A stretch of DNA of 64,000 nt. It comes from Phycisphaera sp. (GTDB lineage Bacteria; Planctomycetota; Phycisphaerae; Phycisphaerales; UBA1924). A program made the position numbers and the translations under genes. Location of the stretch: the NCBI GenBank assembly GCA_003712165.1, contig RHLH01000001.1, forward strand, positions 1,459,575-1,523,574. Direction: 5' to 3'. Below, one piece after another: positions 45,850 through 47,850 of this stretch (positions are counted from its first letter, which is position 1; the number at the start of each line of letters is the position of its first letter). The notes below the pieces were generated by a model. That model did not search any database, was not told the DNA's origin, and saw only the letters and a list, made by a program, of their open reading frames with translations.

Positions 45850-47850
45850 TTAACTCTTCGAGGTATGCATGGCCATCTCTTGCCAGGCGTCGCTCCGTGC
45901 AGTTGTGACCCTATGAGATGCCGCCCTGCGGGAGGCCAGCCACTGGGCCTGGCGCCAGAGCAACGCGGTCAGGGGCTTGATTGAGAGCTTTTTGGCCAGC
46001 CATATCAGGGGGGGGAGGCCCGACGCACAGATGAGCTGATCGTCGAACGCGACATACATCTGCGCGGCACCGGGGTCGCCCTGTCTGCCCGCCCGACCGA
46101 ACAGCTGGCGATCCACGCGACGCTCCGAGTGTCTTTCGGTTCCGAGTACAAACAGGCCGCCGAGTTCCTTGGCCTCTGGGTCGAGTTTGATGTCAGTCCC
46201 TCGGCCTGCCATGTTCGTCGCGACCGTGACCGCGCCGACCTTGCCCGCGTGAAGCACGATCTCGGCTTCTTCCTTCTCGCGCTCGGCGTTTAGGACCCTG
46301 CACACGATCCCCTTCTCGATCAGCATCGCGCCGAGCTTCTCAGACGTCAGGACGCTCCGGGTCCCGATGAGCACGGGCTTGCCCTTCTTGTGAAGCTGCG
46401 CAGTCCTTTCGACCACGGCTTCCAGTTTCGCGTCTTCGTTTTCGAACACGACATCCTCGCGTTCGTCACGAATGACGGGTCTGTGTGTCGGCACGCGAAC
46501 GACCGCTTCGCCGTACGTGCGCCAGAGTTCGTCGGTTACTTCCTTGAGCGTGCCGCTCATCCCCGCAACGTATCTGTACTGCTGGAAGAATCTCGCGTAG
46601 CTGATGCGCGTTGATGTCCGCCTGGCTACCGTCGGATTGAGCCCTTCTTTGGCTTCGACCGCCTGATGAAGCCCGGCTTGCCACTGCCTTCCCTCAAGCA
46701 CGCGTCCCGTCGAGCGATCGACGATCTCGATTTTGTCATCACGGATGATGTAGTCATCACCCTTGATTTGTATCTCCTTCGCCAGCAGCGCGGTCCGCAC
46801 GATCTCCTCGCTTCGCCTGGGCCCGGTCCAGAACGCGGGGAACGATCTGGTCATTTCTCTCAGCTTTGCACGCCCCATGTCGGTGATCTCGACATGTCTG
46901 AGCTTGCGATCAACCTTGTAGTCCCCCCCCTCGACCATGTCTCTTGCGATCGCGCAGGCCGTCCTGTGGTGTGCCCCGCTCCGGTCTTCGCCTGAGCGTT
47001 CGCTGAGCTCCTCAGCCGCGATGATCGCGGGCGTGGCTGCCTCGTCGATCAGGATGCTGTCGACTTCGTCGATGATGACCGCATTGAACCCCCGATGCAC
47101 TACACCCCGGTGCCAGCTCGGCTCGCCCTCTCCCGAGAGCTCGTGCAGGATCGATCCCGAGAGCGACACAGCGGGGGGAATCTCAAGGCGATCGCGCAGA
47201 AAGTCGAAGACGATCTGCTTGTCAGCCGCGTACGTGATGTCCGCGTCGTACGCAGCCTTACGATCGCCCCTTGGGGTGCTGTCGACCACCACGCCCACGC
47301 TCATCCCGAGCCTCTTGTACACGGGAGATGTGATCTCGGCGTCTCGGCTGGCGAGATAGTCATTTACCGTGAGCACGTGGACACCCCGGCCTGACCAGCC
47401 GTGGAGCACGGTCGGCAGGATCGCGGTGACCGTCTTGCCTTCGCCGGTCGCCATCTCCGCGAGCGCACCGTCGGCCATAATGAGACCGCCGATCACCTGC
47501 TCAACGTAAAGCGAGAGCCCAAGCTCCCTGCGGATCGCTTCACGCGTCAGAGCAAACGCATCATCGACCGCCCGGGCTTTGTCACGCCCGAGAAGCACCG
47601 CGTCGCGGTACTCATCCGTCAGCTCGCGCAGCGCAGCATCGCTGTGGTTTCGAAGCGCGTCAGATGCCTCGACGATCCGCTCGGCTCGTTCAGTGCGGTT
47701 GTACTTGAACGTCTTGCGTGCGTACTTGCCGTGGACCCAGCTTCCGAACATGTCGAACCCGTCTGGGGGAGGGGAGCGCCTGACGGAACGCGAGAGCATG
47801 GGCCAAAGCCTTCGCGACGCGGGCGGCATGTGCTCGGCGAGCAGACTCAA
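45850..47850 (-). CDS. SecA-like ATPase: DEAD motor plus preprotein-crosslinking-like insert, lacking the canonical C-terminal scaffold/wing/CTL domains
   Basis: 666 aa. Walker A [14 protein letters not shown] (47431-47454), [72 protein letters not shown] followed by only ~72 aa. The TTG start overlaps the upstream stop (TTGA). Confidence 0.85.
   Translation of the reverse strand: [666 protein letters not shown]

Follow-up and report, generated by a model that had tools for sequence, protein, structure and literature searches.

A window of 64,000 nucleotides (64 kb) from a metagenome-assembled genome (MAG) of Phycisphaera sp. (contig RHLH01000001.1; "the window" designates this whole stretch) contains, at 45850..47850 (-), a gene for a SecA-like ATPase of 666 amino acids, deposited in GenBank as a "hypothetical protein" (RNC81454.1) and called short SecA below. 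The protein retains the motor and the preprotein cross-linking domain (PPXD) of SecA and stops 72 residues after helicase motif VI. It belongs to a family conserved across phyla, whose genes recurrently lie directly downstream of a gene for an M50 protease-HlyD adaptor fusion. From gene content and synteny we infer that short SecA probably powers a type I-like, envelope-spanning exporter, in which M50/HlyD membrane proteins would replace both SecYEG and an ATP-binding cassette (ABC) transporter. A narrower statement, that the M50/HlyD proteins are the partners of short SecA and that it has no housekeeping SecA role, merits more confidence than the exporter itself.

Domain content and truncation point of short SecA

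The three parts that a first-pass annotation of this DNA had described as recognisable, nucleotide-binding domains 1 and 2 (NBD1, NBD2) and a PPXD-like insert, were all matched in Pfam: SecA_DEAD (PF07517, E 5.5e-83, residues 53-443), PPXD (PF01043, E 8.3e-23, residues 295-399, 46654..46968 (-)) and P-loop_SecA/NBD2 (PF21090, E 4.6e-54). All the motifs quoted in that annotation were present, including Walker A (MATGEGKT, residues 133-140, 47431..47454 (-), T135-T140 invariant in the family alignment), DEVD (residues 261-264), NMAGRGTDI (residues 546-554) and motif VI (residues 585-594, 46069..46098 (-)). The ATPase motifs (Walker A/B, V and VI) were invariant across an alignment of 46 short SecAs. 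Residues 54-612 aligned with residues 20-554 of Bacillus subtilis SecA (phmmer, E 4e-123), with 37-38% identity over about 620 aligned columns. The first 52 residues (47695..47850 (-)) constitute a family-specific N-terminal extension, recognised in the family alignment by the motif RLWPxLS...PxGxDxxG, which stands in place of the N-terminus of canonical SecA and may serve in docking; distant short SecAs carry the related motif W..L...P.G(L/V)D. Translation begins at a TTG codon.

Weak Pfam matches to DEAD (E 0.009) and Helicase_C (E 0.0012), together with the RefSeq name "DEAD/DEAH box helicase" given to the Mesorhizobium protein, would be compatible with a nucleic-acid helicase. Neither match reached its Pfam cut-off, the protein keeps the PPXD insert peculiar to SecA and the gene context consists of membrane and export functions only, so that a helicase is scarcely credible here. 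Annotation pipelines name other members of the family inconsistently, also as "prepilin peptidase", "hypothetical protein" or "preprotein translocase subunit SecA" (among them L088, L089, L091, L093, P0015, P0079, P0087 and P0117; L and P numbers designate loci and proteins of this analysis); for short SecA, "prepilin peptidase" and "DEAD/DEAH box helicase" are clearly wrong.

The first-pass estimate of about 72 residues past motif VI was exact, since the motif ends at residue 594. The AlphaFold2 model, built on 46 family members (pLDDT 86.4, pTM 0.83), ends in a single long helix (residues 625-665, 45856..45978 (-)). In the alignment with full-length SecAs, Q636 pairs with the glutamine of AQ(K/R)R(V/I)E, a motif of canonical SecA, and the C-terminus lies about 10 residues past the equivalent of YDD. 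By model, alignment and family tail motif (see below), the terminal helix is predicted to be the start of the scaffold helix, a stump of about 30 residues. The rest of the scaffold, the wing domain, the two-helix finger and the C-terminal linker are missing as judged from the alignment; the loss of all these elements had been proposed beforehand, and it stands for wing, finger and linker, but not for the first ~30 residues of the scaffold helix. SecA_SW (PF07516), the Pfam model for scaffold and wing, did not match short SecA at E<=0.01; in a control it matched 4 of 4 full-length SecAs (1e-36 to 1e-46) and 0 of 6 short SecAs.

Foldseek searches with the model retrieved SecA structures only, the closest superpositions being with SecY-engaged SecA (5eul and 6itc, TM-score 0.78-0.79). 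The matches included the engineered Escherichia coli SecA N68 truncation (5k9t), whose domain content, DEAD motor and PPXD, is nearly the same; N68 is a laboratory fragment, however, whereas short SecA is encoded by a natural, conserved gene, has an N-terminal extension of its own and ends in a conserved helix. The ATPase of SecA N68 is deregulated and elevated, and the fragment is not known to support translocation. With canonical SecA (TIGR00963/PRK12904), short SecA shares NBD1, PPXD, NBD2, all ATPase motifs and the fold, but it stops ~30 residues into the scaffold helix, begins with another N-terminus and has M50/HlyD instead of Sec neighbours. The match to every NCBIfam SecA and SecA2 model broke off at about position 550 of ~790. 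Scores were far below the cut-offs both of the canonical models (TIGR00963, 538 against 800 bits; PRK12904, 537 against 814; PRK09200, 564 against 862) and of the SecA2 models (TIGR04397, 514 against 1085; TIGR03714, 473 against 930; TIGR04221, 406 against 725; NF012136, 383 against 1100).

The short form was the rule among the relatives of this protein. The 120 best matches in a search of 5.8 billion proteins were 605-722 residues long and 50-92% identical to short SecA, and those with a taxon name came from Phycisphaerae or Planctomycetota. When proteins were clustered at 50% identity, about 140 of the 150 top-ranking representatives had 600-725 residues, and the first full-length SecAs came near the bottom of the list; family members also bear names of Verrucomicrobiota and Pirellulaceae. 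Nearly all short forms have in common the tail motif AQ..A......R......D.WL.E.L.FAG, which the protein of the window fits (Q636, R647, D657-A-W659). Among the SecA open reading frames (ORFs) beside the protease-adaptor fusion described below, the tail after motif VI comprised 64-90 residues in 70 of 71 complete ORFs, none of which was full length, and all ATPase motifs were intact in 63 of 72. Against the orthologue of the close relative L001, dN/dS was 0.18 overall and 0.17 in the tail (approximate values, dS being higher than 1); judged from these substitutions, the tail is under purifying selection.

These data on conservation refuted the idea that the gene is a decaying or frameshifted SecA remnant with no function of its own. 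Such a remnant could be expected from a protein shorter than every curated SecA model and below all NCBIfam cut-offs, but length and tail motif were conserved across phyla, dN/dS was low in the tail as well, the ATPase motifs were intact in most neighbouring ORFs, and the window held no fragment of the C-terminal half of SecA (tblastn with seven full-length SecAs matched the short SecA locus only). The probability left to a remnant is minimal, and the clean stop reported at first is a genuine gene end.

In a neighbour-joining tree, 6 of 7 full-length SecAs formed a clade apart from all short forms; the seventh did not: P0358, a planctomycete-type long SecA of 1240 residues with a large insert in NBD2, grouped among the short forms. 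This hints that the short family may have arisen from a SecA of the Planctomycetes-Verrucomicrobia-Chlamydiae (PVC) type, a question for which neighbour-joining is too crude to decide. Two further records deserve mention. In an Oceanospirillaceae MAG (L085:11802-13268), a relative of 488 residues occupies the position of short SecA after the fusion; the PPXD-like region and the family tail (...LLRYDKQLENITAFSGRAE) are kept and there is no Walker A, no DExD and no NBD2, so that by its sequence it looks like an ATPase-dead derivative. A fragment of 268 residues (P0545), in the same 90%-identity cluster as RNC81454.1, is listed under a MAG of a cyanobacterium (Leptolyngbya sp. SIO3F4), probably as a binning contaminant.

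Linkage to a protease-adaptor cassette

The gene upstream of short SecA (47847..50030 (-), 727 residues, RNC81455.1) encodes a fusion of a PqqD-type domain (a RiPP recognition element, RRE), an M50-like intramembrane metalloprotease and a HlyD adaptor, and its stop overlaps the TTG start of short SecA by 4 nt (TTGA). The PqqD match was above the Pfam cut-off. The zinc site HExxH is present as HEFGH (residues 215-219, 49374..49388 (-)) and the second M50 motif, NxxPxxxxDG, lies at residues 310-319 (49074-49103 (-)); H215, E216, H219, N310, N312, P313, D318 and G319 did not vary among 13 fusion sequences, the most distant of which were 31% identical. No solved homologue of the fusion was found, matches being limited to marginal ones with MacA/MexJ.

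Three further genes precede the fusion in the operon. The first encodes a GAF domain followed by one transmembrane helix and a HlyD-type periplasmic adaptor (50043..51950 (-), 635 residues), the second a DUF3467 protein (51977..52303 (-), 108 residues from a conserved methionine) and the third a short HlyD/RND-type periplasmic adaptor (52510..53334 (-)), whose start is approximate: the longest ORF reaches 53640 and the L001 orthologue has 274 residues. The operon has, in all, three HlyD-type domains. Identity across Phycisphaerae was 70-80% for DUF3467, against 50-55% for short SecA and 43-47% for the fusion, which makes DUF3467, by sequence, the most constrained component of the cassette. The DUF3467 protein starts with a poly-Q stretch and is also found in proteobacterial versions of the cassette. 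A SecB-like chaperone was considered for it and found no support: the AlphaFold2 model was poor (pLDDT 56), the best Foldseek match in the PDB had an E of 0.19, hhalign against E. coli SecB (with an approximate SecB sequence) gave a probability of 0.1 and a sequence search of the PDB gave no match.

Synteny was analysed from both sides. Starting from short SecA, the GAF-HlyD and M50-HlyD genes were adjacent in 8 of the 10 gene contexts inspected. The converse search, with only the fusion as query and one genome per species, gave 80 loci from Planctomycetota, Verrucomicrobiota, Kiritimatiellae, Lentisphaerae, Omnitrophota, Alpha-, Beta- and Gammaproteobacteria, Desulfobacterota, Nitrospirota, Rokuibacteriota and Myxococcota. 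A SecA-like gene was located directly downstream of the fusion in 74 of these loci, commonly with start/stop overlaps of 4 or 8 nt, and 2 of the other 6 stopped at a contig edge; the tie between short SecAs and membrane fusion protein (MFP)/M50 neighbours suggested by the first-pass annotation was thereby borne out. A relative of GAF-HlyD was present in 77 loci, almost always directly upstream of the fusion, DUF3467 in 29, a short HlyD adaptor in a subset, and a TolC-family gene within the cluster in 8, as well as in L006 and L088.

The fusion was also found on megaplasmids of cultured Alphaproteobacteria. On pMSC49a of Methylosinus sp. C49 the order was a 26.5-kb gene, DUF3467, an adaptor, the fusion, short SecA (as "prepilin peptidase"), an adaptor and TolC; in Mesorhizobium ciceri R30 and Pseudosulfitobacter DSM 107133 the same core followed genes of 31.5 and 38.7 kb, respectively. 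A SapC-family gene sits between the fusion and short SecA in Pseudosulfitobacter (L089:11233-12054), with tblastn matches also in L029 and L090. The other known setting of SapC is the type I secretion operon for the S-layer of Campylobacter fetus.

The neighbours of short SecA in the window were genes for HlyD, DUF3467, GAF-HlyD, M50-HlyD, an AbgT transporter and trigger factor; SecY2/Asp or glycosylated serine-rich adhesin genes were absent from this neighbourhood and Sec genes from the operon. An ordinary SecA2 with SecY2/Asp partners, the outcome that would have spoken against a separate role, is therefore at odds with the gene context as well as with the SecA2 model scores. SecA2 of accessory Sec systems is similar in that it, too, is an additional SecA and serves only some of the exported proteins, but it has ~760-800 residues with a scaffold domain, while short SecA has no SecY2/Asp partners and its hosts are diderm PVC bacteria and proteobacteria. 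The re-targeting of the motor to a different channel, as first proposed, is the best-supported reading on gene context, since neither a frameshifted full-length SecA nor an ordinary SecA2 was found and the MFP/M50 linkage holds.

No ABC transporter was detected in the cassette, either that of the window or those of related loci; the sole ABC protein nearby (36892..38745) has an ABC-F architecture (two ABC_tran domains and ABC_tran_CTD) and is not an exporter. PADLOC gave no matches, and a defence system was rejected. The trigger factor gene (53640-55001 (+)) is divergent beside the operon, in the close relative L001 as in the window and not in more distant loci, probably a coincidental synteny.

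The PqqD domain, typical of RiPP recognition elements, raises the possibility of maturation and export of a ribosomally synthesized and post-translationally modified peptide (RiPP), in which PqqD would bind the leader of a small peptide, M50 trim it and HlyD export it, as with daptide or YydH-type proteases, short SecA being a chaperone or unfoldase. The best NCBIfam match of the fusion was indeed daptide_HExxH (NF041824, E 4.4e-43), followed lower in the list by YydH/LiaK (NF058609, E 1.3e-8), and the fusion shares with these proteases the HExxH membrane protease core and a PqqD-like N-terminal domain; both scores were, however, far below the cut-offs (147.9 against 300 and 34.8 against 225), and the protease of the cassette differs in being fused to HlyD and partnered with a SecA-like ATPase. 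A small ORF does follow the short SecA gene in the window (45557..45790 (-), 77 residues), and no giant substrate was seen in the Phycisphaerae loci, which would fit a peptide product. The strong ribosome-binding site attributed to this ORF in the first-pass annotation is there (AAGGAGG, 7 nt before the ATG), but the ORF (RFVPNAPYRVAHDLxGDWWIW...SETEAQ..CDEL) was kept only in close relatives (L001, 64% identity; L008, 55%) and not in more distant loci, had no family in Pfam, NCBIfam, PHROGs or PADLOC, and is, on this distribution, probably lineage-specific and outside the core. Moreover, the conserved cassette contains no RiPP-modifying or tailoring enzymes (radical SAM, dehydratase, etc.), the recurrent neighbours elsewhere are giant LEPR-XLL proteins and a short peptide does not need a threading motor. 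RiPP export is consequently unlikely.

Candidate cargo and proposed export route

Proteins with an N-terminal LEPR-XLL domain (NF012209), mostly giant, were neighbours of the cassette in 11 loci, all outside Phycisphaerae. The giant proteins of Methylosinus C49, Mesorhizobium R30 and Pseudosulfitobacter DSM 107133 start with a basic stretch followed by LEPRxLLSAD and score 29-34 bits against an NF012209 cut-off of 17; eight more neighbours passed the same model (L006, L029, L035, L039, L046, L059, L071 and L099), including proteins of 5481 and 6810 residues. The leader, read directly from the N-termini of the giant proteins, has no hydrophobic h-region. Adjacent giant proteins of surface type carry Ig, cadherin and LamG domains, and in a cadherin/CBM60 protein of Pirellulaceae the LEPR-XLL motif was recognised by eye only. 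Very large surface proteins that begin with a LEPR-XLL domain appear to be the cargo in many lineages; for this Phycisphaera genome the assignment is made with less confidence than the exporter. A 453-residue protein with a C-terminal dockerin type I domain is encoded a few kb from the operon (41472-42833 (+)) and has no LEPR-XLL-like N-terminus.

The following route is proposed for the putative exporter. Short SecA would contribute the parts that bind and move polypeptides (NBD1, NBD2 and the PPXD clamp), having lost those that regulate the motor and insert into SecY. Its membrane partner, with which it would be co-translated, is predicted to combine a PqqD-type domain that binds leader peptides in the cytoplasm, an intramembrane zinc protease of the M50 type with 6-8 transmembrane helices and a periplasmic HlyD adaptor; the GAF-HlyD adaptor, the short HlyD adaptor and DUF3467 would be further partners, joined in other lineages by a TolC-family outer-membrane channel. 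The PqqD domain would capture the N-terminal leader, and short SecA, docked on the M50/HlyD inner-membrane assembly, would feed the unfolded chain into it at the expense of ATP. The M50 site would remove the leader, and the HlyD/TolC conduit would take the protein outward across periplasm and outer membrane.

Several observations weigh against this exporter. The short SecAs of L004 (Verrucomicrobiota) and L097, the two exceptions among the ten look-ups, had no M50/HlyD gene within 10 kb, and at least three fusion loci (L046, L051 and L054) had no adjacent SecA despite enough downstream sequence, convergent genes following the fusion. Neither LEPR-XLL proteins (regular expression and custom hidden Markov model searches of real ORFs) nor a TolC-like gene (E 1e-4 in the window) were found in the window or in ~45 Phycisphaerae loci. 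To our knowledge, no M50 protease forms a protein-conducting channel, and we know of no mechanism by which a SecA without the two-helix finger could translocate proteins. As the 64-kb window holds no substrate, no TolC and no canonical SecA, the cargo, TolC and housekeeping SecA of this Phycisphaera would have to be encoded outside it. The short SecA gene of L004 overlaps by 4 nt an uncharacterised ORF of 116 residues, and a DDE transposase gene is located upstream.

Two other arrangements of the same parts were weighed. Short SecA might be an accessory targeting ATPase that hands clients to the housekeeping SecYEG, with M50-HlyD/TolC acting next, from the periplasm outward, in a two-step process. 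The identity of motor and PPXD to B. subtilis SecA would favour this, and SecA2-type paralogues that use SecYEG exist, such as mycobacterial SecA2. The scaffold, wing, two-helix finger and canonical N-terminus are, however, missing or replaced, the tight translational coupling is with the M50-HlyD fusion and not with any Sec gene, and the LEPR-XLL leader lacks the hydrophobic h-region; a hand-over to SecYEG is very unlikely on these grounds. Alternatively, short SecA and the fusion could form a two-component, ATP-dependent membrane protease in which the ATPase unfolds substrates and feeds them to the M50 site, in the manner of FtsH and with no transport out of the cell. The coupling of an ATPase to an intact zinc protease agrees with this possibility, and the GAF sensor domain suggests regulation. 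It leaves unexplained the three HlyD-type adaptors of the operon, the TolC genes of other lineages and the adjacent giant surface-type proteins, and we regard it as quite improbable.

Relation to known systems and significance

Among known exporters, the type I secretion systems for giant adhesins (SiiCDF/SiiE, Lap) resemble the cassette in having adaptors of the HlyD family, in the presence of TolC (in several lineages) and in the giant surface proteins of repetitive sequence encoded alongside. The cassette differs in having no ABC transporter, its place being taken by a SecA-like ATPase and an M50-like polytopic protein, and in its candidate signal, LEPR-XLL, which is N-terminal; the type I signal is C-terminal.

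The nearest published observation concerns giant proteins of Omnitrophota and Actinobacteria that hold SecA DEAD and PPXD domains without scaffold or wing, coexist with a normal SecA and were proposed to function in giant-protein export (West-Roberts et al. 2023, bioRxiv 10.1101/2023.11.21.568195). This is a published precedent for a tie between wingless SecA domains and the export of giant proteins; there, the SecA module is a domain inside a giant protein, beside transmembrane helices, while short SecA is a free-standing protein of 666 residues encoded in an M50/HlyD operon. Full-text literature searches found no description of the cassette or of a free-standing short SecA, although one may still have been published, and NCBIfam release 20 has no model for either.

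The cassette would probably be a tripartite exporter whose energising module is new, and the chance that it represents a secretion system of a new class is realistic. In its widest form, the proposal is that short SecA, M50-HlyD, GAF-HlyD, DUF3467 and TolC make up an unrecognised class, widespread in PVC bacteria and Proteobacteria, which would export LEPR-XLL-tagged and often giant (5,000-13,000 residues) surface proteins, N-terminus first, through a TolC-type conduit, driven by a SecA-derived motor without its SecY-engaging half, the intramembrane protease cleaving off the leader; to this we give even chances. The tripartite exporters known from diderm bacteria run on ABC, resistance-nodulation-division (RND) or major facilitator superfamily (MFS) transporters, and no role is known for SecA other than that of SecYEG motor. 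If the proposal is true, a wingless SecA and a protease-adaptor fusion would constitute a new way to power transport across both membranes, a function would be assigned to the LEPR-XLL domain, to DUF3467 and to many mis-named proteins, and there would be a testable route by which bacteria export proteins of 5,000-13,000 residues. Short SecA is also a natural experiment on a SecA motor that has no two-helix finger, and as such is relevant to the choice between power-stroke and ratchet mechanisms, which is under debate. As cultured carriers exist (Mesorhizobium, Methylosinus, Pseudosulfitobacter and Bradyrhizobium), the idea is directly testable.

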